Below are positions 2-59,976 of a stretch of DNA of 64,000 nucleotides, one piece after another. A program made the position numbers and the translations under genes. Origin of the DNA: Candidatus Terrybacteria bacterium RIFCSPHIGHO2_01_FULL_48_17 (GTDB lineage: Bacteria > Patescibacteriota > Minisyncoccia > Terrybacterales > 2-01-FULL-58-14); the NCBI GenBank assembly GCA_001822835.1, contig MHSS01000002.1, positions 65,060 through 129,059 of the forward strand, given 5' to 3'. Under the pieces are notes generated by a model, which was not told where the DNA came from, made no database searches, and was given only the letters and a program-made list of their open reading frames with translations. Numbering within the stretch: the stretch's first letter is position 1; each line of letters opens with the position of its first letter.

Positions 2-874
2 TTCGACACACCCGCAAGATTCATCCATGATTTGTGGGAAAAACTTTTGTGGGGAGATCAGCCGGCCGGATGGCACGTGGGGGGTACTCCGCAAAGCGTT
101 GGGCAGATTACATATAAGGATCTTTCGGCCTTTTTCAAAACACACTATGTGGGGCATGCCACAGTGGTATGCCTTGCGGGCGCTGCACAACAAGCCGATC
201 TTAATCCTATGCGTAAACTTTTTTCTAAGATCGGCGCGGGAGAACAACACCAGCACTCAAAAATTCAGGAGGAACAAACCCATCCGCAGGTTCTTGTATA
301 TTATAAAAAGACCGATCAGACGCATATTGACCTTGGATTTCGCGCGGTTTCCTTAACCCATCCCATGCGATATGCTCTTGCGGTACTTGCAACGGTATTG
401 GGAGGAACCATGTCCTCGCGCCTTTTCTTGGAGCTTCGAGATAAACTCGGGCTGGCATATAGTGTAAAAACCGAGACATTTTTTGATACGGAATCTGGAT
501 ACTTGGTAACTTCTGCAGGAGTTAAGCATGAGTATTTAGAAAAGGCGATACGGGCAGTGCTTGCTGCGTACCACCATGCAAAAAAGTACCCGCCGGCACG
601 AGAGGAGCTTATGAAGGCAAAAGAGGCGATGCTTGGCCGTTTTGTGCTCGATTTGGAGCAGACGGATGAGGTTGCTTCGTATGTGGCAACGAATGCGTTA
701 TTACTCAACAAGTATGAGTCGGCGGAGGAGGAAATGCGGCGGCTCAAGCAGGTAACCGCCAGACAGATTCAGGAAGCGGCGAGATTGTTTTTTACTCCCG
801 AACGTCTTAATTTTGCGCTTATCGGACCTTATCGTGATAAAAAACCTTTCTATAAACTTTTAAATAATTTTTGA
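2..874 (+). CDS. M16 (insulinase/pitrilysin-like) peptidase family protein, C-terminal part; 5' end lies outside window (frame open to position 2)
   Basis: Open frame continues upstream of the TTG at 32 with no stop; sequence resembles M16 C-terminal/inactive domain; a second M16 with the HxxEH motif is at 21606. Confidence 0.6.
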   Translation, partial: FDTPARFIHDLWEKLLWGDQPAGWHVGGTPQSVGQITYKDLSAFFKTHYVGHATVVCLAGAAQQADLNPMRKLFSKIGAGEQHQHSKIQEEQTHPQVLVYYKKTDQTHIDLGFRAVSLTHPMRYALAVLATVLGGTMSSRLFLELRDKLGLAYSVKTETFFDTESGYLVTSAGVKHEYLEKAIRAVLAAYHHAKKYPPAREELMKAKEAMLGRFVLDLEQTDEVASYVATNALLLNKYESAEEEMRRLKQVTARQIQEAARLFFTPERLNFALIGPYRDKKPFYKLLNNF

Positions 875-932
875 GTTTCTTATACCGTTCCGTTATACTA
901 CTCACTACTTCCTGCTTTCTATTTTCTAAATT

Positions 933-1943
933 ATGTCTCTCGATATTCCCACAAAAACGATTGTTCGAGTGTTTGCAGCGCTTTTTATTGTTGCGCTGGT
1001 TTTGGTCTTGAAAGATATATTGGCGCTGTTTTTTTTGGCGCTCGTGGTTGCCTCTGGCCTTTCTCCTGTTATTGGATGGATGGAACGGAGGGGGTTTCCG
1101 CGCATTTTGGCTGTCACCATGCTTTTTGTTGGCGCGGCATTATTTATTGCGGGGCTGTTTTGGTTACTGATCCCCCCAATTTTGGAAGACATTAGCGAAC
1201 TCTCCAAAAATTTCCCCTTGTATGCCGAGCTTTTACGCGATAGTATTTCCCGTTTTGGTATTGCGCCGGAGGGTGCGGTTGGGGTTGGGGTTTCAGAAGT
1301 ATTTCGGGAGTTCGCCAATTATTTTGGCAAGGGAGTAACGGCGATTCCCGCAATTGTCTTTCAGTTTTTTGGCGGCATCATTGCGCTGCTTTCGTTTGTG
1401 TTGGTAACGTTTTATCTTGCGCTTGAACGGGATGGCGTTGAGCGATTTTTGAAAGCAATAGCGCCGGGGGAGGAGCCGTACGTTGTGGATCTGTGGCGCC
1501 GCGCGCAGCGGAAAATCGGATACTGGGCGCGCGGGCAGGCAGTACTTATGATCGTGATTGGCCTGGTAACGTATGCGGGGCTTTCGGTTTTGGGCGTGCG
1601 GTATGCCTTATTGCTTGCGGTATTGGCCGGACTTTTAGAGGTGGTGCAGCTCGTGGGGCCCATCGTGGCGGGTACCGTTGCGACCATTGTCGCGTTTTCT
1701 TCTTCTCCTTTGCTTGCCGTGGGGGTAGTACTTTTGTATGTTGCGATTCAGCAAATTGAGTCCAATATATTGGTTCCGGTCGTTTTCAAAAAAGCACTTG
1801 GCCTTTCTCCGGTTGTGGTGATATTTGCCTTGCTTGCCGGCGCAAAACTAGGAGGGGTGGTGGGCATGATTATTGCCGTGCCTTTGGTTGCTATTTTGTC
1901 GGAGCTTTTGTCAGATTTTTCTAAGGGGAAAATAAAATTGTAG
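933..1943 (+). CDS. AI-2E family transporter (PerM/UPF0118-like permease)
   Basis: 336-aa polytopic membrane protein with the characteristic AI-2E layout and G-rich C-terminal helices. Confidence 0.75.
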   Translation: MSLDIPTKTIVRVFAALFIVALVLVLKDILALFFLALVVASGLSPVIGWMERRGFPRILAVTMLFVGAALFIAGLFWLLIPPILEDISELSKNFPLYAELLRDSISRFGIAPEGAVGVGVSEVFREFANYFGKGVTAIPAIVFQFFGGIIALLSFVLVTFYLALERDGVERFLKAIAPGEEPYVVDLWRRAQRKIGYWARGQAVLMIVIGLVTYAGLSVLGVRYALLLAVLAGLLEVVQLVGPIVAGTVATIVAFSSSPLLAVGVVLLYVAIQQIESNILVPVVFKKALGLSPVVVIFALLAGAKLGGVVGMIIAVPLVAILSELLSDFSKGKIKL

Positions 1944-2002
1944 AAGCGGCTCAAAGCGCGGACTTGCGCGGATTTACCCGCCAGAGGCGGGCAAGCGCCG
2001 AC

Positions 2003-2452
2003 CTACGCGGACAATACGACTAATAGTAAAATCGTTGCCATTGCAACGTCAAATGGGAGGGTTTTGATAATCTTTCGCTCGCCCCGATAATGAAGCTTGC
2101 GATGAAATGCCCGAAATTGTTTCAAAAAGGGGATTTTGGGAAATAGAGATTGCATAACCCATAGCCCGTCGGGAAGCATGGCAAGAAACGCTGCCAAAAA
2201 TAAAAGCGGTTGCCAGCCCAACAAAAGCAAAATAATGGCAAACCCGGCGGATCCTTCAAGAACAGCACCCCCGATATTGAAGAACAGCCATGCCCCGCGC
2301 CTCTTTTCTTTGATCGCCTGTACCGAATAGTCGGTATGCGGCAGCCAATCAAACGCGAAGTGGCTTACAAAAGCCAACGGCAGCGCAATGAGCGGTTGCG
2401 GCATTATAGAAGCAATGGCTGCACCGGAAAGGGCGTGTAAGGCGAGTACCAT
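2003..2452 (-). CDS. hypothetical integral membrane protein
   Basis: 149 aa, about 4 hydrophobic helices, conserved-looking His/Asp residues; no family recognised. Confidence 0.45.
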   Translation of the reverse strand: MVLALHALSGAAIASIMPQPLIALPLAFVSHFAFDWLPHTDYSVQAIKEKRRGAWLFFNIGGAVLEGSAGFAIILLLLGWQPLLFLAAFLAMLPDGLWVMQSLFPKIPFLKQFRAFHRKLHYRGERKIIKTLPFDVAMATILLLVVLSA

Positions 2453-2590
2453 ATTGTAATAAGCTCAAATGTCCAAGCCCAAATGTCAAATAAATGTCCA
2501 ATGACTTAATGTCAAAGACCCGCGCATTCGGTTTTTGACATTGCTGCTTGGGATTTTGTTTGGCATTTGGATTTTGATATTGGGATTTGT

Positions 2591-3298
2591 ATGAGCGGTA
2601 TATTATACATCGTCGCCACCCCCATCGGAAATCTTGAAGATATCACCTTGCGGGCGTTGCGCGTGTTAAAAGAGGCGGATATGGTATTGGCGGAGGATAC
2701 GCGAGTCACAAAAAAATTGCTTTTTCATTATCACATTGAAAAGCCCCTTTTGTCATATCGGCAGCACTCGGGCGAGGGAGTGGTTGAAAAGATATTAAAA
2801 CTGCTTAGGGAGGGGAGGCGCCTTGCGTTGGTAACTGATGCAGGAACGCCAGGCATTGAAGATCCTGGAAACAAGCTCGTTGAAGAGGTGATTAAGCGAT
2901 TGGGTGATGGGGTGAACGTTGTTGTAACTCCCGGCGCATCTGCGCTGACAGCCCTTGCGTCGGTTGCGGGTATTTCCATGGACCGTTTTTGTTTTTTAGG
3001 GTATCCTCCGGCAAAAAAGGGGCGCAAGAGATTTTTTGAAGAAATGGCGCACGGCAGTCACGCCACGATACTTTATGAGTCACCTCACCGCATTCTTCGT
3101 ACGCTCGAAGATATAAGAGCCATCGTCGAAAACGAACGCTATATTGTCATTGGCCGCGAACTTACCAAAAAGTTTGAAACGATTTATCGCGGCAGTGTTG
3201 AGAAAATACTCGCGCAATTAGTGAGTCAAAAACCACAAGGCGAATATACGATTATTGTTGGGGCGGAAAAAGGAAAAGGCCGCAGAGCGGCCAATTAG
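2591..3298 (+). CDS. rsmI: 16S rRNA (cytidine1402-2'-O)-methyltransferase RsmI
   Basis: N-terminal ILYIVATPIGNLEDIT(L)RA motif and tetrapyrrole-methylase fold; start taken at the Met preceding GILYIV (the ORF-track start at 2567 is also possible). Confidence 0.85.
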   Translation: MSGILYIVATPIGNLEDITLRALRVLKEADMVLAEDTRVTKKLLFHYHIEKPLLSYRQHSGEGVVEKILKLLREGRRLALVTDAGTPGIEDPGNKLVEEVIKRLGDGVNVVVTPGASALTALASVAGISMDRFCFLGYPPAKKGRKRFFEEMAHGSHATILYESPHRILRTLEDIRAIVENERYIVIGRELTKKFETIYRGSVEKILAQLVSQKPQGEYTIIVGAEKGKGRRAAN

Positions 3299-3568: not shown

Positions 3569-5056
3569 ATGTCAAATAAATTCTACATCACCACGGCAAT
3601 CGCATATACGAATGCGCCGCCTCATATCGGGTTTGCCCTGGAATTGGTGCAGGCGGATGTGTTGGCGCGGCTTCACGGTCTGCGCGGCGAAAAACGTTTT
3701 TTCCTTACTGGTACAGATGAGCACGGCCGAAAAAATATGCAGGCGGCACAGGGTGCCGGCAAAAAACCTGAAGAATTTGTTGATGAAATGGCGGGGCGTT
3801 TTGAAAAGCTCGCTCGCGCATTAAACGTTTCCAACGATGATTTTATAAGAACATCCGATCAAGACCGCCATTGGCCGGGCGTTGTCCAATTTTGGAAACA
3901 ACTTCAAGAATCCGGAGATCTATACAAAGCTCAATACGAAGGGCTTTATTGTTCGGGTTGCGAGGCATTCAAAAAACAAAGCGATCTTGAAGATGGCATG
4001 TGTCCTGACCACGGCAAAGTTCCCGACAGGGTGAAGGAAGAAAACTGGTTTTTCCGTCTTTCAAAATACCAAAAAGAGCTTACGCGCATTATTGGAGCGG
4101 ACGAACTTCGTATAGTGCCGGACACCCGTAAAAACGAAGTACTGTCATTTATTGCGCAAGGGCTGGAAGACGTTTCCTTTTCGCGTCCCCGAAGGGATTT
4201 GCCTTGGGGCGTTCCGGTTCCGGGCGACGACGCCCAAACTATATACGTTTGGGCCGATGCTTTAGTGAATTATCTTACCGGAATAGGGTACGGACACGGA
4301 CCTGGGGACAGGGTTCAGGGGACAGAAAGATTTGAAACATTCTGGCCGGCGGATATTCATGTTATCGGCAAAGACATCTTGCGATTCCATGCGGTAATCT
4401 GGCCGGCAATGCTGTTGTCGGCAAGATTGACGTTGCCCAAAATCCTTTTAGTGCATGGGCACATTCTTTCCGCTGGTAAAAAGATGTCAAAAACAATCGG
4501 AAACGTCGTTGACCCTTTTGCTATTGTTGAAAAATACGGGGTAGACGCAGTACGTTATTTTTTGCTAAAAGAAATTCCGACAACCGCAGACGGTGATTTT
4601 ACTGAAGACCGATTCCTTGAGGTTTATACTTCATCGCTTGCCAATAATCTTGGGAATCTGGTAGGGAGGATTGCCGCGTTGGGTAAAGATCAGGAGATAA
4701 CAGTACAGGCAGGACAGGATATTCAGGAAGTTGCAAAACGCGCGTGGGCAGAATACGAAGCGGCGTTTGCCGCCTTGCGGCTTGATGAGGCGTTGGGTGC
4801 TGTAGATAAGTTTGTCGGTTTCGGGAACGAATTCGTTGAGCGTACAAAGCCATGGGAAGGTGAGCATAATTTGCACGGTGCCTTGCCGCAGCTTGCGTGG
4901 ATGCTTGGCAATATTGCGTGGATGTTAGCACCACTTTTGCCCGAGACCGCGCGCAAAATTTTTGACCAATTAGGAATTGATCCGGGAGATACTGCGTTGT
5001 GGGAAGGAGAGAGTATTAAAATGAAAAAGGGCGCTTCGTTGTTTCCGAGGTTTTAA
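3569..5056 (+). CDS. metG: methionyl-tRNA synthetase (short form)
   Basis: Class I HIGH-like motif (PPHIGFA), KMSKT motif, and CSGC...CPDHG zinc knuckle. Confidence 0.9.
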   Translation: MSNKFYITTAIAYTNAPPHIGFALELVQADVLARLHGLRGEKRFFLTGTDEHGRKNMQAAQGAGKKPEEFVDEMAGRFEKLARALNVSNDDFIRTSDQDRHWPGVVQFWKQLQESGDLYKAQYEGLYCSGCEAFKKQSDLEDGMCPDHGKVPDRVKEENWFFRLSKYQKELTRIIGADELRIVPDTRKNEVLSFIAQGLEDVSFSRPRRDLPWGVPVPGDDAQTIYVWADALVNYLTGIGYGHGPGDRVQGTERFETFWPADIHVIGKDILRFHAVIWPAMLLSARLTLPKILLVHGHILSAGKKMSKTIGNVVDPFAIVEKYGVDAVRYFLLKEIPTTADGDFTEDRFLEVYTSSLANNLGNLVGRIAALGKDQEITVQAGQDIQEVAKRAWAEYEAAFAALRLDEALGAVDKFVGFGNEFVERTKPWEGEHNLHGALPQLAWMLGNIAWMLAPLLPETARKIFDQLGIDPGDTALWEGESIKMKKGASLFPRF

Positions 5057-5057
5057 T

Positions 5058-5203
5058 ACTCGCGATGAGCTTTTTCGCTTTCTGCGTTCCGCCCACCGAG
5101 CGGAACGCAGGGACTCGGCCTGCGCTCCCGAGCACTCAACGCGTTGAGTGCTCGGACCATGGCCGCTCCGGCCTCGTAACCCGCTCAAAAGCTCATCGTT
5201 CGC
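5058..5203. repeat. hairpin-rich intergenic repeat, copy A (terminal inverted repeats ctcgcgatgagctttt / aaaagctcatcgttcgc; internal perfect hairpins)
   Basis: Starts 2 nt after the metG stop; arms are near-identical to the arms of copy C (42421/42573); internal 24-nt perfect palindrome gagcactcaacgcgttgagtgctc. Confidence 0.7.
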
Positions 5204-5234: not shown

Positions 5235-5831
5235 ATGTTTAGGGAAAGAGAAACAAAGGAAGATTGGCGGGAGGATTTTGAGCGTGAGGTGATTCGGCGT
5301 TCGGCAGTTTCCGATGAGGAGCTGGTACGCAAGCGCGCAGCACCCTATGAGCCGCCGGCATTTGAAATTCGGGAAGCCCGTGAACGCGATGAATATATGG
5401 TGACATCACGAGAGATTTTGGATTTGTATCGTCTTCATTCGCAGATGACGGGTGATTTGTGGCCTAAAGCGGCGCCGTCGCTCCGTCCTTATTATGAAAA
5501 GCAGCTCGAACGTGTTTGGAATAAATTGCGGTGGACAATTCGACAAGAAACGCAAGAGGCAGAACAATCAGAACCCTTTTTTGATCAAGGACAACAGGAT
5601 TTCGCAAGAAAGCTCGAGGCGCTTTGGAATTCCATGGAAGAGCTCGGAGATAATGAAGACGATCAAGAGCATCGTTTCCATCAGATTGAAATTATTGGGC
5701 GAATTATTCACAGCCTGCATATTAACGGTCCACTCGCCCGATATTTGGTACGTGATATGCGCAATTTATCTGACGAACAGATTAAAGATTTTTTTGATAA
5801 ATTAGGCAACTACTACTACGCAGTTGCGTAA
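5235..5831 (+). CDS. hypothetical acidic protein
   Basis: 198-aa ORF, charged/helical composition; no recognisable domain. Confidence 0.5.
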   Translation: MFRERETKEDWREDFEREVIRRSAVSDEELVRKRAAPYEPPAFEIREARERDEYMVTSREILDLYRLHSQMTGDLWPKAAPSLRPYYEKQLERVWNKLRWTIRQETQEAEQSEPFFDQGQQDFARKLEALWNSMEELGDNEDDQEHRFHQIEIIGRIIHSLHINGPLARYLVRDMRNLSDEQIKDFFDKLGNYYYAVA

Positions 5832-5864: not shown

Positions 5865-6734
5865 ATGCCACAATTGGTAGATATCCATGGTCACATACAA
5901 TTTTCGGCATTCAAAGACGACGCCGACGAAGTGATAAAACGCGCCATAGATTCTGGCGTTTATATTATTGCGCCTTCGTCCCAGCTTTCCACTTCTAAGC
6001 GGGCGATTCTGTACGCGGAAAAATATCCGGGAAAGGTATTTGCAGCCGTAGGATTGCATCCAATTCACTTAAAACCCGCAAAGTTCGATCCGTCTGAGGG
6101 AGAAGCGCCTTCTTTTCAAACGCACGGAGATCAATTTGATGAGAAAACATGGCGGCCGTTGGCGGAGAATAAAAACGTGATTGCGTTGGGTGAGGTGGGT
6201 TTGGACTATATTGATCGGCTTGAGCTTTCAGAAAAAGACCGCGACGTGCAGGAAGAAACATTCCGCAAAGAAATTGAGTTGGCGCTTTCGGTCAATAAGC
6301 CCATTATCCAGCATTGCCGTTCAGGCATTGTCGAAGGCAAGGAACGTGATGCCCACGACGACGCGCTCCGCATCATCCGCGACTATATCCTGAACTCTGA
6401 ACCCTCTACCCTGCGTGGCGTTGCCCATTGCTACTCCGGCAATATCGGGCAAGCCAAGAAATATCTTGATTTGGGATTTCATCTTTCGTTTACCGGCCTT
6501 ATTACTTTTAACAACTTATGGGACGAGGTAATAAAAATGGCGCCTTTGGAGCGCCTGATGGTCGAAACCGATTGCCCGTATATGACACCGATACCGCATC
6601 GCGGCAAGCGCAATGAACCGATGTACGTGCGTTATATGGCAGATAAAATCGCGGAACTGAAAGGATTTTCTTTTGAAAGGGTAGCGGAGCGAACCACAAA
6701 GAATGCACAAGAGCTTTTTGGATTGCCATTGTAA
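5865..6734 (+). CDS. TatD family metal-dependent hydrolase/DNase
   Basis: N-terminal DIHGH/HxH motif and TIM-barrel TatD layout with a conserved C-terminal PYMxP-like segment. Confidence 0.85.
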   Translation: MPQLVDIHGHIQFSAFKDDADEVIKRAIDSGVYIIAPSSQLSTSKRAILYAEKYPGKVFAAVGLHPIHLKPAKFDPSEGEAPSFQTHGDQFDEKTWRPLAENKNVIALGEVGLDYIDRLELSEKDRDVQEETFRKEIELALSVNKPIIQHCRSGIVEGKERDAHDDALRIIRDYILNSEPSTLRGVAHCYSGNIGQAKKYLDLGFHLSFTGLITFNNLWDEVIKMAPLERLMVETDCPYMTPIPHRGKRNEPMYVRYMADKIAELKGFSFERVAERTTKNAQELFGLPL

Positions 6735-6769: not shown

Positions 6770-7231
6770 ATGATGGCCATCATAAAATTCTTTCGTTCTC
6801 TTCCAAAATCTCTGCTCGGGGGAATTCTTTTATTGTTTCTTGCGGGCGTTTTCGCAAATGCGGTTCCAACGCTTCACGCAGAACTGTTATTCCTTGATGG
6901 AGTCGTCCCCACGTTTTTATTGTGGGACCTCGTTTCTGATGGAGAGATCAACGCATGGTATCTGGATATTCCTGAAAATCCTTATTTGAAAATTATAAGT
7001 CCGGTGTATTTAGATCTTATTCTTCCAGCTATTGCTCTGCTTCTTTTTTGGGCGATAAGACCTCCTCGTACCACAAAACGTTTACTGGCCCGTCTTTTTT
7101 TAGTTTTCCTAATTCCTTTAATTTTAATACTCCTTCCAATACTGATCGGGATATTCTTATCCACCACGTTGTTTGCTCCCCCTCCTTTTTCTGATGTACC
7201 GGGCATTGACCCGACGTATTTCCAACAATGA
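6770..7231 (+). CDS. hypothetical Pro/Leu-rich membrane protein encoded inside the tatD 3'-end duplication
   Basis: 153 aa with 3-4 hydrophobic helices; AAAGG SD-like then ATG ATG; no homology recognised. Confidence 0.45.
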   Translation: MMAIIKFFRSLPKSLLGGILLLFLAGVFANAVPTLHAELLFLDGVVPTFLLWDLVSDGEINAWYLDIPENPYLKIISPVYLDLILPAIALLLFWAIRPPRTTKRLLARLFLVFLIPLILILLPILIGIFLSTTLFAPPPFSDVPGIDPTYFQQ

Positions 7232-7352
7232 ACCGATGTACGTGCGTTATATGGCAGATAAAATCGCGGAACTGAAAGGACTTTCGTTTGAAAAAGTGGC
7301 CGAGCAGACAACAGAAAATGCTATAACTCTTTTTGGGTTAAACATCGCTTGA
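7227..7352 (+). pseudogene. displaced duplicate of the tatD 3' end (encodes NEPMYVRYMADKIAELKG... about 41 aa)
   Basis: First 54 nt are identical to 6611-6664 of tatD, the rest diverged; no upstream gene body. Confidence 0.7.
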
Positions 7353-9371: not shown

Positions 9372-9478
9372 TCCCGTCCTTTTTCTATTGTAAAATGTCT
9401 TTCTTTTTGTATCAGAGATATGCTAAAAAGGTCAACCTGTCTTTTCTTTTGCGCATGTGTTATTGTAAAATATTGTTT

Positions 9479-10054
9479 ATGCAAAACTCGCGTATTTTGG
9501 GACTTGATCTTGATGGGACGTTGGCAGATCATACGTTCGCCAAAATTGCTATTGCCCGCGAACTCGGCTACACCCTTTCCCCTCCGCAAACGGCATCGGC
9601 GATTTTAAGACACATCATGCAGCCGGAGCATTACCGGACGTTGCAAAAGCGACTCTATCACGATTTTGCCCCACATTCCCCAAAGACCGTGGGGGCCGAA
9701 GAAGCGCTTGATGAACTTCGAGTGCGTGGGTGGGATTTCCTAGTTATTTCCCGTCGAGGGGGAGAGGACTCGCAGGACTTGGCTCGGCAATGGGTTGTGC
9801 AGGAATACGCTGGCATGATTCCTTCCGAACAGGTTTTTTTCGTTGAGGAAGACGCCGCAAAAAACACCGTCGCGAAAGAACATGGCGTGTTGGGATATGT
9901 TGATGACCAACAGGAGGTTTTAAATTATCTTGCGTCCGTAAAATACCGTTTGTTGTTTGATCCCTTTGAGAATTTTCTTACTAAAACGCCGCCGCATATT
10001 TTTCTGATGCATGCATGGCGCGAATTACCCCAGCTTTTAGCCCCGTTTGAATAA
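9479..10054 (+). CDS. HAD-superfamily hydrolase
   Basis: DxDGT motif (LGLDLDGTLAD) 8 residues after the Met at 9479; the ORF-track start at 9356 overlaps the divergent gene and is unlikely. Confidence 0.7.
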   Translation: MQNSRILGLDLDGTLADHTFAKIAIARELGYTLSPPQTASAILRHIMQPEHYRTLQKRLYHDFAPHSPKTVGAEEALDELRVRGWDFLVISRRGGEDSQDLARQWVVQEYAGMIPSEQVFFVEEDAAKNTVAKEHGVLGYVDDQQEVLNYLASVKYRLLFDPFENFLTKTPPHIFLMHAWRELPQLLAPFE

Positions 10055-28700: not shown

Positions 28701-29294
28701 ATGACCACTCATCCTAAAGAAGAAAAAACACTGCTTATTATAAAGCCCGATGCGGTAAGGCGTGGCTTGATTGGGGAAATAATAAAACGCGTTGAGGTGC
28801 GAGGACTTAAAATTGTTGCCCTACGCATGTTTTGGGCAAAACCCGAGGATATGGACCGACATTATCCTAAGGATCAAACATGGATTAGGCGCTTGGGCGA
28901 AAAAACGCTTACTACCTACGAAAAATATGGATATGACGCCAAAAAAGAACTGGGAACTACTGATGTTTTAGAAATTGGTACACAGGTGCGAGGATGGCTG
29001 ATTTCGTTTATGACAGCCGGTCCCTTGGTGAAAATGATTGTTCAAGGAGTACACGCGGTTGATATGGTGCGAAAACTTGTCGGTCAAACCATGCCCGCGA
29101 TGGCGGAAATGGGAACTATCCGCGGAGATTATTCGGTTGATTCTGCTGCTGCGGCAAATCAAGACAAAAGAGCGGTTCGTAATTTAGTTCACGCATCCGA
29201 AACGCCCGATGAGGCGGCAAATGAGATTGGGCTTTGGTTTTCCAAAAACGAAATATTCGAGTATCCGCGGTCCGACGAAGATGCCATTTGGTAA
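28701..29294 (+). CDS. ndk: nucleoside diphosphate kinase (with internal insertion)
   Basis: LLIIKPDAVRRGLIGEII N-terminus, active-site His region (NLVHASE); about 50-aa insertion relative to canonical NDK. Confidence 0.8.
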   Translation: MTTHPKEEKTLLIIKPDAVRRGLIGEIIKRVEVRGLKIVALRMFWAKPEDMDRHYPKDQTWIRRLGEKTLTTYEKYGYDAKKELGTTDVLEIGTQVRGWLISFMTAGPLVKMIVQGVHAVDMVRKLVGQTMPAMAEMGTIRGDYSVDSAAAANQDKRAVRNLVHASETPDEAANEIGLWFSKNEIFEYPRSDEDAIW

Positions 29295-37863: not shown

Positions 37864-37930
37864 AAGCCCGCCTCTGGCGGGAAACTCGAAATCCTAAATC
37901 CGAAATCCAAAATAAATCCAAAACAAAAAA

Positions 37931-37966
37931 TTCGTATATTCGTATCTATTCGTATTTCGTAGTATG
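37931..37966 (+). repeat. 36-nt TTCGTA-hexamer motif, copy 1 (ttcgtatattcgtatctattcgtatttcgtagtatg)
   Basis: Near-identical to the motifs at 40255-40290 and 45986-46020; here it lies between rpmB (minus strand) and tRNA-Pro. Confidence 0.7.
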
Positions 37967-39933: not shown

Positions 39934-40024
39934 CTTTGGCGCTCGGGTAGCCCGCCTCGCGTCTGCAGGGGACCCTTGCGTTCCCTAAGGCCGCTTCGGC
40001 GTGCCACCGCTCGCGCCAAAGCTC
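39934..40024. repeat. hairpin-rich intergenic repeat, copy B (arms gctttggcgctcggg / ccgctcgcgccaaagc; its core is shared with copy C)
   Basis: Begins at the nucleotide after the rpsG stop; about 75-nt core about 90% identical to 42463-42546. Confidence 0.7.
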
Positions 40025-40188
40025 TCTTTATCCGCATGCGCAAGGAGGAGGGGGAGAGAAAAAACTAACTCCACAGCTTCGCTCACGCTCAGCAAGATTT
40101 TCGGGACTTTTCAAAACGCACCCTTCGCGCCTTCTTAATTGGAGGGGTGCGCGGAAGCCGGAAAAGAAAGGGTAAGAAAAACGAAAGT

Positions 40189-40212
40189 AATCCGCGGTGC
40201 GGATTTTTATTT
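40189..40212 (+). terminator. terminator-like hairpin (AATCCGC-GGT-GCGGATT + TTTATTTGGG) between rpsG and fusA
   Basis: Stem with T-run; implies fusA is transcribed from its own promoter. Confidence 0.45.
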
Positions 40213-40220
40213 GGGAAAAT

Positions 40221-40255
40221 TTGACGTATACTGCTTGAAGCGTTATTGTTATAAT
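40221..40255 (+). promoter_or_regulatory. candidate sigma-70-type promoter for fusA (TTGACG-N17-TATTGT, then TATAAT)
   Basis: Same TTGACG-N17-TATT.T architecture as the candidate tuf promoter at 43274. Confidence 0.35.
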
Positions 40256-40290
40256 TCGTATATTCGTATTCATTCGTACTTCGTAGTATT
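40255..40290 (+). repeat. 36-nt TTCGTA-hexamer motif, copy 2, ending 5 nt before the fusA ATG
   Basis: ttcgtatattcgtattcattcgtacttcgtagtatt; no SD between the motif and the start codon. Confidence 0.7.
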
Positions 40291-42420: not shown

Positions 42421-42590
42421 GCTCGCGATAGCGCTTTTCGCTTTCTTCGGCTTGTCGATTTCTTGGGCGCTCGGGTAACCCGCCTCACGTCTGCAGGGTA
42501 CCCTTCCGTTCCCTAAGGCCGCTTGGCGGGCCACCGCTCGCGCCCAACAATTTTTGACCTCGTAACCCGCTCAAATCACTATCGCTCGCT
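42421..42590. repeat. hairpin-rich intergenic repeat, copy C (composite: arms like copy A, core like copy B)
   Basis: Starts 1 nt after the fusA stop; left arm gctcgcgatagcgcttttcgctttc matches copy A; right arm ctcgtaacccgctcaaa...atcgctcgc matches copy A 5170-5203. Confidence 0.7.
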
Positions 42591-42763
42591 AGAGAAATCG
42601 AGACGCTTTTCAAAACGCATCTTCTCGCGCCTAAGAATGAGGGAGGAAAAAAGAAGCCGCCGGTGGGCGGCTGTTGTTATCCCGAGCCGGGTCGAAGGAT
42701 TGATTTTTTTGATAGAAATGGTATATGATTTTTGCACGTTTAGAATTCGAAAAGGAGGATGTT

Positions 42764-43480
42764 ATGACTGCCCCGAATATCTATCTTCGCGCATGGTATG
42801 CGCGATACGGTTTCTCCGATGCCGAATCGTTTCGAGATGCTCTTCTTTCTTCTTTCTCGGGCGCGCCTCTTTTGTCACAGTTTCAGGAAAGGAAAATCGT
42901 GTTATTCCGCAGAACCCGAATATCGCATTTCGCCTTACTTGATGTCTATGACGATGGGTTTCATATTTTATTGAATCGAGAAAGAAGCGTACGCCAGTGG
43001 CTTGTTGACATCGGACACGAGCTTATTCATACGTTTCATTATGATCTTTCGACTCTTCCGCCAGTAAATCTGTTTCGAAAGATGTTCGGGGATCCCGATC
43101 CCGCGCTTGAATATTTTTGTGATTCTGTGGCACGCCGGTGGTTGTTGCAAGATCGGAACGCACGGGCATTGGTTGCACTCTTACGGTCGCAAAGATGGCA
43201 GGGCGAGGTGTTGTGGATTCCAAAACCGCTCCATATGGGCGGTTTCCCCTTTTTATGTATATATTGTAAGGGCTTGACGGATTGTTTTGCCTTGACTATT
43301 ATAATGGTTGCGCTGTATAACAGTGAAGTTAGCTTTATTAATGAAATCCCTCGATTGCGCAGTGATTGCAAAAGGAAGTCCCTCGTTTTGCTTGGGGATC
43401 TACTTTCGCAGCCACTCGCGAAGCTCGCGGGCGAAAGTAACATATGGCAGGAAAATTTGAACGCACCAAACCTCACGTAA
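42764..43480 (+). CDS. hypothetical HExxH protein (ImmA/IrrE- or SprT-like putative zinc metallopeptidase) inserted between fusA and tuf
   Basis: AAAAGGAGG SD 8 nt before the ATG at 42764; motif [13 protein letters not shown]; the 3' end overlaps the tuf start by 37 nt and contains the candidate tuf promoter, so the true stop may be earlier (possibly decayed). Confidence 0.45.
43274..43305 (+). promoter_or_regulatory. candidate sigma-70-type promoter for tuf (TTGACG-N17-TATTATAAT)
   Basis: Good -35/-10 with 17-nt spacer about 140 nt upstream of the tuf ATG. Confidence 0.4.
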
Positions 43481-45781: not shown

Positions 45782-45784
45782 ATC

Positions 45785-45945
45785 GGATGCTTGGGATGCG
45801 TCTCGAAAAGACGTGTCGCGCGCCCAGCGAGGCGCGCGCACTCTCGCTCGGCGTTGTTCTCCCGCCAACGATTAAACTTTTAGGGAAGGCGGGAACCATG
45901 CCCGCAACGCCTCCGCGAAGCTTTTCTCAACACATCCCAAGCATC
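45785..45945. repeat. hairpin-rich intergenic repeat, copy D (arms ggatgcttgggatg / catcccaagcatc)
   Basis: Starts 4 nt after the rplC stop; shares the ggaaccatgcccgc segment with copies E and F. Confidence 0.65.
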
Positions 45946-45985
45946 TGACGAGATTTTCATTTTGTCAAAGTGGCGTGAAAAAAGA

Positions 45986-46020
45986 TTCGTATATTCTTAT
46001 CGATTCGTACTTCGTAGTAT
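45986..46020 (+). repeat. 36-nt TTCGTA-hexamer motif, copy 3, ending 3 nt before the rplD ATG
   Basis: ttcgtatattcttatcgattcgtacttcgtagtat. Confidence 0.7.
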
Positions 46021-49562: not shown

Positions 49563-49665
49563 TTTAATTTCTAATTAACCTAATTGACCTAAGTGTTTAT
49601 GTGGTTTTGAATTAGTCATTCATTAGATCAATTAGAGATTAGAGCAATTAGACATTTTTACGGTT

Positions 49666-49698
49666 ATGCTAATTCCCAAGAAAGTAAAACATCTCAAG
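49666..49698 (+). pseudogene. displaced duplicate of the rplP 5' end (encodes MLIPKKVKHLK, compare real [11 protein letters not shown]), followed by unrelated sequence
   Basis: 33-nt segment 27/33 identical to the real rplP start at 49875; continues into a GC hairpin (gcccgcctcgggcgggc), not into an L16 body. Confidence 0.6.
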
Positions 49699-49874
49699 TC
49701 GCCCGCCTCGGGCGGGCTCTCAAGAAACCCTCGGTTTCTTGCGCTCGCCTTCGGCTCGCTGGTTTCCGATACGGGAAACTTCCGTTTTCCGACCCTTTCC
49801 CGATTTTCAATGTTTTACTTTTTGCCCGGACAACATGTTTGCATGAAAAAATATAAGGTTATGGTTTTTGCGCT

Positions 49875-50285
49875 ATGCTGATGCCTAAAAAGGTAAAACA
49901 TCGAAAGTGGCAGAAGGGTAGATCTCGCGGAATGGCGTCGCGGGGAACCACCCTTGCGTTCGGCGCCTACGGTCTTAAAGCCGAAGGCACGTCTTGGATC
50001 TCATCTCGTCAGATTGAGGCGGCGCGTCGTGCTATTATCAGAACTGCTCGCAAAGGCGGAAAAGTTTGGGTTCGCATTTTTCCGGATAAGCCAGTTACGC
50101 AAAAAGGAACCGAAGTACCCATGGGTGGGGGAAAGGGCGCGCTGGATCACTATGTGTTTCCGGTAACCCCCGGGCGAATTCTCTTTGAGCTTGATGGTGT
50201 TGAGGAGGATATTGCACGCCATGCGCTTCGCCTTGGTGCCCATAAGCTTCCAATAGCGGCGCGCTTTGTACGGCGTGAACACTAA
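49875..50285 (+). CDS. rplP: 50S ribosomal protein L16
   Basis: [15 protein letters not shown]...RIFPDKPVT...GKG L16 motifs. Confidence 0.93.
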
Positions 50286-55848: not shown

Positions 55849-55850
55849 AG

Positions 55851-56000
55851 CTCGCGCAGGGCCATTTGCGAAACGCGACAATCCCCAGCGAGGATTGTCG
55901 CTCTGTCCTCGCCGCGCTCCCCCGCATACGGTTTATATTTTATAAGGAAGCGGGGACCATGCCCGCGCGGCTGCGAAGGTTCGCAAATGTCCCTTCGCTC
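55851..56000. repeat. hairpin-rich intergenic repeat, copy E (arms cgcagggccatttgcgaa / ttcgcaaatgtccct); same subfamily as copy F
   Basis: Starts 3 nt after the secY stop; about 25-nt terminal segments identical to 59705/59814; internal perfect hairpin gcgacaatcc/ggattgtcgc. Confidence 0.7.
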
Positions 56001-56099
56001 ACCCCAAAAAAGTTGCTTGGCTGCTTCATTCATTGTTTCGTAAAGAGAAGGGTAGGATAAAAGGAGACCGGCCGTGCATTGCACGGCCGGTTTTTGTTT

Positions 56100-59630: not shown

Positions 59631-59694
59631 AGCTGGTCGGGCACATTTCGAAAAGGAGAGTGCTCGCGCAAGCCCCTTTTACTTTCCCGGTTTC

Positions 59695-59838
59695 CACGAG
59701 TTCACGCAGGGCCATTTGCGAAACGCGCGCAGCCCCAGCGTGTCTGCGCGCTCTGTCCTCGCCGCGCTCGCCCCGATGGCCATCGGGGCACCATGCCCGC
59801 GCGGCTGCGGAGGTTCGCAAATGTCCCTCCGCTCACTC
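59695..59838. repeat. hairpin-rich intergenic repeat, copy F (same subfamily as copy E)
   Basis: Arms cacgcagggccatttgcgaaacgcg / aggttcgcaaatgtccctccgctcac; internal hairpins gcgcag...ctgcgc and ccccgatgg/ccatcgggg. Confidence 0.7.
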
Positions 59839-59976
59839 GCGGGAGGATCATAACGCGCTCAAAGTGCTACGCGCCCGCAAGAATAATCTGTTTTTCTCAA
59901 TCTTAATGCACTAGTCGCGTTTTTTCTGGAAGACGCACGTTCCTCCCTTTGTTTTTAGAGAGGAAAAGAGAAAAGG

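Follow-up and report, generated by a model that had tools for sequence, protein, structure and literature searches.

What is the compact, strongly folded element that stands immediately downstream of metG in a 64,000-nucleotide stretch of contig MHSS01000002.1 (the window, by which we mean the whole stretch that was analysed), and why do related sequences follow other genes in the same stretch? An earlier note, made from the sequence alone, had described a structured intergenic repeat with complementary ends, had likened it to REP/BIME/MITE-like repeats or to a family of 3′ untranslated region (UTR) structures acting as terminators or stability modules, and could assign it to no known family. 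The present analysis establishes that the metG element is one inserted copy of a new, widespread dispersed repeat family defined by its structure, here termed R1, whose fold is far more elaborate than that of ordinary bacterial repeats. The three-way junction with its pseudoknot, the spread across phyla and the evidence for insertion were not part of the earlier description and are all added here.

The metG element and the R1 family

The metG open reading frame (ORF; Pfam match tRNA-synt_1g) occupies 3569-5056 and ends in a TAA stop at 5054-5056, from which only the dinucleotide TA separates the 145-nt element at 5059-5203; reading of the sequence confirms the reported placement 2 nt 3′ of the stop. 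The complementary ends hold on recomputation, with a perfect inverted repeat of 12 nt (5063-5074/5187-5198) that extends to about 5059-5203 when mismatches are allowed. Both of the internal hairpins claimed earlier were also recovered: one is perfect, with 11-nt arms and a 7-nt loop (5082-5092/5100-5110), while the reported 24-nt palindrome sits inside a perfect palindrome of 28 nt (5128-5155). The predicted RNA fold has an energy of -75.6 kcal/mol, compared with -48.9 +/- 3.8 kcal/mol for dinucleotide shuffles (z = -7.0; 0 of 200 shuffles as stable), and the complementary strand is equally stable (z = -6.7). A covariance model of the family, also called R1, matches the copy over its full length (model positions 1-131) at 5062-5199 with 50.8 bits and an E-value of 3e-13, a match that is partly by construction since this copy is among the 60 seeds. 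The inner P1 and P5 are weak in the metG copy, and closing is done by the 12-bp outer stem. Its parts are as follows.

5059-5203, + strand: the metG copy, a complete R1 member whose outer stem corresponds to the 'arms' of the earlier note (R1 match, fold z-score, empty sites in relatives)
5063-5074, + strand: outer stem P1, 5′ strand, pairing with 5187-5198 (12-nt perfect inverted repeat)
5082-5110, + strand: P2 hairpin, with the family loop CCCACCGAG at 5092-5100 (inverted repeat and R1 alignment)
5128-5155, + strand: P4, the variable apical hairpin, here the 28-nt perfect palindrome (inverted repeat; P4 pairs covary family-wide)
5156-5168, + strand: 3′ strand of the internal loop, ACCAUGGCCGCUC (motif search)
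5187-5198, + strand: outer stem P1, 3′ strand, with the subfamily motif UCGUAACCCGCUCAAA just upstream at 5174-5189 (inverted repeat)

Relatives of this element were sought with CCCASCGWG N36-66 ACCRTGSYYGC N2-4 GSCT, a pattern drawn up from five copies, which returned at least 120 loci from a metagenome collection and three chance matches in 2.9 million viral contigs. A first, looser pattern (CCAGCG..ACCATGCCCGC) had given chance matches only, in viral contigs. The metagenome figures rest on one pattern-limited scan, from which 98 loci were fetched. The R1 model, built from an alignment of 60 copies, identifies 112 copies at E < 1e-6 in the window and these 98 loci, many single contigs holding two or three, so that further copies do exist well beyond the window; the retrieval pattern fits 106 of the 112 aligned copies and misses six. 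As there were more matches than the 120 loci listed, the family is probably much larger than sampled here. Exact-sequence look-ups identified locus L217 as Candidatus Omnitrophota and L266 as Candidatus Uhrbacteria, and such matches show the family in at least the Patescibacteria (candidate phyla radiation, CPR) and the Omnitrophota. The G+C content of copy-bearing contigs ranges from 33% to 69%.

The family appears to be uncatalogued, which agrees with the earlier failure to assign it. Rfam 15 at gathering threshold returned only tRNA and rRNA for the window and 12 loci, and E-value scans of the metG copy, the canonical copy in L165 and the rpsG spacer gave noise or nothing; no Rfam 15 class fits R1, including hammerhead, twister, twister-sister, pistol, hatchet, HDV-like, HEARO and the riboswitches. 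Literature searches on the motif strings, on RNA motifs of CPR and Omnitrophota and on repeats found no description of the family, and plasmid and phage collections held no match that would indicate carriage on such elements.

A three-armed fold and its pseudoknot

From its 5′ end the R1 consensus runs through P1 (often extended to 20-35 bp), ACGC, P2 with a G-C/C-G clamp and the loop CCCAGCGAG, and GCUCG. There follow P5 (CG.UUU with AAACG), P3 (AGGC/GCCU), the 5′ strand of an internal loop (UCGCUC) and the variable hairpin P4, and then the opposite loop strand, (A)ACCRUGCCCGCUC, and the 3′ strands of P3, P5 and P1. The P2 loop conforms to CCCASCGWG and the internal loop is asymmetric (UCGCUC / ACCRUGSCCGCUC). 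The alignment shows every R1 copy keeping this single fold, modelled as three-armed and pseudoknotted with P5 and P3 stacked coaxially. Across the 112 copies 81.3% of cells are paired, compared with 60.5% in shuffles and 36-56% in slid-partner controls, both-sided changes occur in 36 of 38 pairs, and the covariation score of 0.48 (0.165 in shuffles) is reached by none of 500 shuffles. Every R1 helix, P4 included, is supported by covariation. The 112-copy alignment was fitted to R1, which favours the model; a MAFFT alignment gave the same picture, and an independent mutual-information scan recovers the helices together with P5 and the pseudoknot pair, neither of the latter two being present in the model. 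The folding check that had been proposed for the element is therefore borne out both for the metG copy, in its excess stability over shuffles, and for a family with a covarying consensus structure.

In the pseudoknot, S-C-G of the P2 loop pairs with U-G-S′ of ACCRUGS′. For S/S′ the pairing is G-C in 102 copies and C-G in eight, with no other combination, and two copies on a single contig (L184) differ in which of the two they carry. Since both positions are free to be G or C in the retrieval pattern, this covariation does not arise by construction. The metG copy carries the C-G variant (C5096-G5162): U5160, G5161 and G5162 would pair with G5098, C5097 and C5096 of the P2 loop, CCCACCGAG lying at 5092-5100 and ACCATGGCCGC at 5156-5166. 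An alternative pseudoknot, between GCGAG of the P2 loop and YUCGC of the 5′ strand of the internal loop, covaries in only one of seven C-variant copies inspected by eye and was rejected.

An architecture of this kind invites the question of whether the repeat carries a new catalytic or ligand- or protein-binding RNA, for example a self-cleaving ribozyme in which the internal loop docked to the P2 loop would form the active site. The junction, the perfectly covarying long-range pseudoknot and the conserved unpaired bases of one internal and one hairpin loop are indeed ribozyme- or aptamer-like, no known class is matched, and known small ribozymes are likewise multi-copy, with no fixed orientation and no regular gene neighbourhood. 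We nevertheless consider this rather improbable, as no cleavage-site signature is recognisable, the very long perfect closing stems and nested inverted-repeat layers are more like DNA palindromes, and the invariance of the motifs owes something to the way in which the copies were retrieved.

Composite copies, insertion and dispersal

A search of the window with R1, filters off, yielded four members, after metG, rplC, secY and orf59346 (51-78 bits, E 3e-13 to 2e-21), and nothing else convincing. The motif ACCATGSCCGC is common to these four copies; a fifth match, at 29088, falls in a coding region read as ndk from sequence and is taken as chance. The five further related copies listed by the earlier note all exist, but they do not form one homogeneous family, as four elements of the window (metG included) belong to R1 and the cores after rpsG and fusA do not. 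The copies other than that of metG are the following.

39934-40022, + strand: rpsG copy, module B, rod-like and structured, outside the R1 family (sequence, fold)
42421-42590, + strand: composite after fusA, a metG-type shell around a module-B core at 42462-42548 (sequence reading, repeat comparison)
45782-45948, + strand: rplC copy, an R1 member starting at the rplC stop codon (R1 match 45793-45938, 78 bits, E 2e-21)
55849-56002, + strand: secY copy, an R1 member (R1 match 55855-55997, 72 bits)
59661-59880, + strand: composite after orf59346, a metG-type shell (59661-59697 and 59837-59880; shell motif TCATAACGCGCTCAAA) around an inner copy (sequence reading)
59698-59836, + strand: the inner copy after orf59346, nested in the outer shell (R1 match 59705-59831, 64.8 bits; outside the seed alignment)

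The rpsG element and the fusA core are 91-92% identical, which confirms the earlier observation that the metG arms surround a different core at 42421-42590. These two cores are treated as a second, unrelated module (B), separate from the R1 family; module B has no R1 and no Rfam match and, among the window and the fetched loci, is found in the window only. The arms described earlier (CTCGCGAT..CTTTTTCGCTTTC ... TCGTAACCCGCTCAAA..) make up the outermost region of the metG copy. After fusA they are found again, there enclosing module B, and after orf59346 they form the shell of a secY-type R1 copy, which is akin to the secY copy in two segments (83% and 94% identical). The 3′ arm motif YCRUAACCCGCU is also present in the metagenomic R1 members L171, L197 and L229; L163 has it once too, outside the R1 matches of that contig. 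Because they are shared with metagenomic members, the arms represent a subfamily-specific P1/P5 region rather than a separate family. The mix-and-match of arms and cores is thus real in the composites after fusA and orf59346, where it reflects nesting or core replacement.

Evidence on how the metG copy arose comes from its relatives. The closest named relative by ribosomal protein S7 is Candidatus Terrybacteria (70% identity), and the exact methionyl-tRNA synthetase (MetRS) sequence occurs on 19 contigs, including GCA_001822935.1. Two further loci, L278 and L279, encode MetRS sequences 68% and 65% identical to that of the window and keep the gene order AI-2E transporter/(-)ORF/TP_methylase/metG/next ORF/TatD, the next ORF of L278 being a clear orthologue of orf198. 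In these loci the metG spacer measures only 24 nt (L278) and 9 nt (L279), compared with 178 nt in the window, 145 of which are the element, and neither holds an R1 match. Short, element-free spacers in two syntenic relatives identify the metG element, at the level of sequence, as an insertion relative to L278 and L279, whose sites are too diverged to place the exact insertion junctions. Elsewhere, in the relative L140 (Terrybacteria 58_14), rplC overlaps rplD and no element separates the two genes, and the regions downstream of rpsG and fusA in relatives are without the window elements and hold other sequences. The comparison of orthologous loci suggested earlier thus finds relatives without an element at the metG, rplC/rplD, rpsG and fusA sites, and such empty sites indicate that the window copies are lineage-specific gains.

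Several other features of these loci may be recorded here. The gene directly after the metG element, orf198 (5235-5831), has as its sole Pfam match a weak, sub-threshold one to phage Mu GemA (E 2e-4). Further downstream the 3′-terminal ~114 nt of the TatD gene occur twice, with 84% identity (6611-6724 and 7226-7339), and the duplicates flank a 153-aa ORF (6770-7231) with no Pfam match and no annotated equivalent in L278 and L279, which looks like a cargo gene inserted with a replacement copy of the 3′ end of the host gene. In two relatives of the window (L141, 9920-10130; L143, 4345-4430) displaced second rpsG 3′ ends lie 33 nt (L141) and 16 nt (L143) past the live rpsG stop and are followed at once by a structured element, an R1 member in L141 and in L143 one that starts like the window rpsG module. 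These displaced termini suggest that insertions occurred one after another at the end of the gene and that each brought a gene terminus with it. In relatives, variable ORFs, including a HicA toxin, are also present between rpsG and fusA.

Copies of R1 behave as dispersed units. Copy pairs from unrelated loci are 87-95% identical while their flanks are ~45% identical, the random level, and within contigs the identity spans the extended stem and ends near its foot. The neighbours are diverse housekeeping genes (alanyl-tRNA synthetase, release factor 1/2, S4, S9, RpoD and others) with no constant partner, and no transposase, integrase or reverse transcriptase was seen among the flanking genes, including several ORFs near the window copies. 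Nested copies or further inverted-repeat layers occur in the window, in L143, where P2 of one element is interrupted by another, in L200 and in the CGTCAG subfamily, which has an additional outer inverted-repeat layer. The truncated 5′ part of a third R1 copy, inverted, lies in L200 at about 9570-9610, ~60 nt downstream of the copy at 9394-9527.

Orientation is mixed across the family. For 98 copies on contigs below 58% G+C, the contexts were (+,+) in 26, (-,-) in 14, (-,+) in 15 and (+,-) in seven, counted relative to long flanking ORFs in crude gene calls that picked the longest ORFs greedily. Gene 3′ ends, on either side, tend to lie against the hairpin foot or to run into it, and gene starts lie farther off; in some copies, such as that of L223, the stop and last codons fall inside the 5′ strand of the extended stem. 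Of 42 same-strand 5′ neighbours, 17 have their stop codon no more than 17 nt from the start of the match. In the window, where Pfam confirms the identities of the adjoining genes, the element follows the stop by 0 nt at rpsG (TAG), 1-2 nt at fusA, 0 nt at rplC and about 2 nt at secY, and begins 30 nt past the stop at orf59346. The statement that the repeats always lie directly 3′ of stop codons in gene orientation therefore describes the window, apart from the orf59346 copy, and does not extend to the mixed contexts elsewhere. The GC skew is positive across the whole window, and replication and gene orientation are inseparable there.

It is from these positions that a host-serving, cis-acting RNA of 3′ UTRs and spacers, stabilising mRNA or marking sites of RNase III or RNase P-like processing and operon punctuation, with dispersal as a secondary matter, draws its appeal. 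All six window copies are sense and adjoin stop codons (with the orf59346 exception just given), many same-strand stops elsewhere are close to the match, orthologous copies are conserved at least as much as their coding flanks, and the long closing stems are like RNase III substrates. Wobble pairs point in both directions: in well-paired columns G-U outnumbers A-C by 50 to 39, no clear overall excess, but G-U is concentrated at two positions, with 20 in P3 and 14 in P5 and at most three A-C there. Further, about a third or more of the copies are antisense to or divergent from their neighbours, the antisense copies too are abutted by gene 3′ ends, and relatives express the same operons without the element at orthologous sites. 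Stabilisation would need only a simple hairpin and leaves the conserved core unexplained. We regard a host-serving role as unlikely, albeit the most serious of the alternatives.

The analysis further shows R1 to be non-coding, as far as reading frames can tell. In the fetched loci no long ORF starts at the conserved RUG or interrupts a copy, so that no related autonomous insertion sequence was found; frames from the RUG span 6-112 codons, and one 263-codon frame on a contig of 60% G+C was judged spurious. The sequence ACC-RUG after the purine-rich strand of P4 resembles a ribosome-binding site and start codon, and a small ORF or toxin mRNA was accordingly considered; it was rejected, as the frames of 6-112 codons have unconserved ends.

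Some observations concern individual contigs. Several break inside the repeat, and independent assemblies of the window species (L273, L274, L276 and L277) break within or just after the orf59346 composite, as is expected if the repeat confounds assembly. In L173 the 16S rRNA gene (271-3265, minus strand) is 2995 nt long with about 1.46 kb of insertions, the first three of 144, 109 and 62 nt, and an R1 copy (1171-1320, plus strand) lies inside this gene on the strand opposite to the rRNA.

The interval from the metG stop to the orf198 start contains nothing that resembles a promoter or a terminator, from which we infer that the metG copy is transcribed within the operon, as an intercistronic structure co-transcribed with its neighbours. 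A role in 3′-UTR stability may follow as a consequence of such co-transcription. The terminator role proposed earlier is not supported. No terminator-like site overlaps the elements and no U-tract follows them, and separate canonical terminator-like hairpins with T-runs stand downstream of the rpsG and fusA copies (40189-40205 and 42655-42672). An unusual factor-independent terminator would account for a G+C-rich hairpin directly after genes; it is, however, scarcely credible given these downstream hairpins and the intra-operonic position of the metG and rplC copies, with no promoter-like match at metG and only a repeated leader region before rplD. Very improbable, too, is a set of independent multi-copy genes for trans-acting small RNAs with their own promoters and terminators, for which the conserved structure and the many orientation-independent contexts, including 15 copies between divergent genes, could be cited. 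The window copies, at 0-2 nt past stop codons, leave no room for a promoter, no promoter-like site precedes the metG copy, no U-tract terminator lies at the end of the element, and the extended stems vary by subfamily, whereas a trans-acting seed would be conserved.

The ribosomal operons of the window show further irregularities. The str operon is broken up, with terminator-like and promoter-like sites between rpsG and fusA (40189-40249) and again after fusA (42655-42729), and an extra 251-aa ORF without a Pfam match (42725-43480) lies between fusA and tuf. The motif TTTTCAAAACGCAC or a similar one is found at 40099-40121, 42610-42640, 59915-59935 and 123-145; it leads into a purine-rich run and, beyond that, a canonical terminator hairpin, and this arrangement recurs 3′ of the rpsG, fusA and orf59346 elements. 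A 41-nt repeat (ATTCGTATATTCGTAT..ATTCGTA.TTCGTAGTAT) with four or five UUCGUA units and 85-90% identity occurs at 37925-37965, 40249-40289 and 45980-46020; the latter two copies lie directly 5′ of the fusA and rplD starts, at the place of the Shine-Dalgarno sequence, that of fusA after a promoter-like site, and the repeat may be a shared leader or protein-binding site. In the normally tight S10 operon rpsC and rplP are split by 310 nt: the 5′ end of rplP (start and first ~12 codons) is duplicated with 74% identity (49656-49702 and 49865-49911), and between the duplicates lie G+C-rich hairpins (49703-49790) and a promoter-like sequence.

Mobility, RNA function and known systems

We favour, with moderate confidence, the reading of R1 as a mobile element that is non-autonomous, an enzyme from another gene of the genome acting on its folded single strand. 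It is the dispersal, the mixed orientation, the nesting, the gain and loss between relatives and the lack of gene association that lead us to this view. In such a model, the metG copy would have been inserted, in a Terrybacteria-like lineage, into a conserved operon at the short spacer between metG and orf198. The single-stranded form, either RNA or one DNA strand, would take the R1 fold, and the enzyme would recognise this fold to copy or move the element. In compact genomes copies would survive mainly in the few dispensable bases beside stop codons, and new copies would be able to nest inside older ones. Within the metG operon the closing stem of 12-26 bp and the compact core could then become a processing site or a barrier to 3′-exonucleases, as a side-effect rather than as the reason for the existence of the element.

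Several observations weigh against mobility. No candidate mobilising enzyme was found, nor was any target-site duplication, nor terminal inverted repeats distinct from the stem; the long inverted outer strands differ between subfamilies, and copies with unrelated flanks have no consistent direct repeat at their boundaries. No filled-versus-empty polymorphism is seen at metG, where the element is 100% identical in eight near-identical contigs among the 19 with the exact MetRS, or at the orf59346 site, where seven of ten contigs span the element, identical or with three bases different, and none has an empty allele. All copies in the window and in the metagenomic CGTCAG subfamily are sense and just after ORFs. 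In two orthologous pairs the element is 97% identical compared with 95-96% for the flanks, and 96% compared with 89-93%, although the flanks are mostly coding, which hints at purifying selection on resident copies. The junction, the pseudoknot and the ~35 conserved unpaired bases, kept across two phyla, exceed the needs of known transposase-recognised hairpins, and such a core looks like functional RNA; the invariance of its motifs is itself partly by construction, in that 106 of the 112 copies match the search pattern. The main tension thus lies between mobility and a rich core conserved across phyla, together with conserved orthologous copies, and it keeps alive the two RNA readings set out above, host-serving and catalytic or binding. 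In a broader form, which we hold to be quite unlikely, R1 would be a new functional RNA class of ultra-small, probably episymbiotic bacteria (CPR/Patescibacteria and Omnitrophota), either a catalytic RNA or the RNA or single-strand scaffold of an undescribed structure-guided or templated mobility system, with the internal loop docked to the P2 loop as its active or recognition centre.

Returning to the mobile element, R1 displays individual features of several known families. The earlier comparison with REP/BIME/MITE-like repeats is apt in that R1 is dispersed, non-coding, modular and nested. Like the REP, BIME and REPIN sequences of enterobacteria and Pseudomonas, it consists of extragenic palindromes at gene 3′ ends, in both orientations and in mosaic or nested arrangements, and a further likeness is that these are co-transcribed and able to stabilise upstream mRNA. 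The mobility of REPINs depends on an enzyme supplied in trans, RAYT, whose single gene copy lies elsewhere in the genome; no RAYT (Y1 transposase) was seen among the neighbouring genes in the 64-kb window and the short contigs. The comparison fails in the unit itself, since a REP is an imperfect hairpin, about 35 nt long, that bears a conserved tetranucleotide of the GTAG type, whereas the R1 unit has no such palindrome and is a multi-helix structure of 125-145 nt (up to about 250 nt with outer layers) whose three-way junction, internal-loop core and pseudoknot are kept across phyla.

Perhaps closer in size are the co-transcribed miniature inverted-repeat transposable elements (MITEs), namely Correia/NEMIS of Neisseria, ERIC/IRU, RU-1 and MIRU of mycobacteria, which are non-autonomous, 100-170 nt long and located in intergenic or intercistronic spacers, fold as long hairpins in mRNA and in some cases extend over a stop or start codon or provide terminal codons. 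R1 shares their size class, spacer insertion, long hairpins and stop-codon overlap. However, MITEs have terminal inverted repeats and target-site duplications and no conserved interior tertiary structure, while in R1 it is the interior and not the ends that is conserved, and no duplication was found.

Recognition as a folded single strand has precedents in two systems. Integron attC sites and Vibrio cholerae repeats are, like R1, imperfect palindromes (~60-140 nt) 3′ of ORFs and alike within a genome; R1 differs in having neither the R″/R′ cores (RYYYAAC / GTTRRRY) in the element sequences read nor a cassette array or integrase nearby, and its flanks in the window (metG, ribosomal-protein genes, secY) are core housekeeping genes in conserved operons. 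The ends of IS200/IS605 elements and PATEs lack terminal inverted repeats and target-site duplication, and in R1 no duplication and no such repeats distinct from the stem were found; their folded single-stranded DNA is recognised via non-contiguous guide-site pairing, and IS200/IS605 insertion is orientation-biased relative to replication. IS200/IS605 ends are simple subterminal hairpins, unlike R1, near which no TnpA or TnpB gene was seen and for which no conserved target tetranucleotide was derivable. To the riboswitches and small ribozymes that combine a junction with a pseudoknot, the resemblance is one of architecture only (a three-way junction, a loop docked into an internal loop, invariant unpaired bases), as R1 has no 5′-UTR placement, no gene association and no Rfam match and is multi-copy in both orientations.

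At the population level R1 behaves like a selfish repeat, and its structure is of the grade seen in riboswitches or ribozymes; it occurs in otherwise extremely compact genomes, inside core operons (metG, S10/spc, secY). Its repeats break metagenome assemblies, and a covariance model would improve annotation. Should R1 prove to be a functional RNA, ultra-small bacteria, themselves poorly understood, would have a new RNA class of their own. Should it prove to be mobile, the fold ought to point to the mobilising enzyme, and R1 would help to explain the break-up and re-promotion of operons in these lineages.

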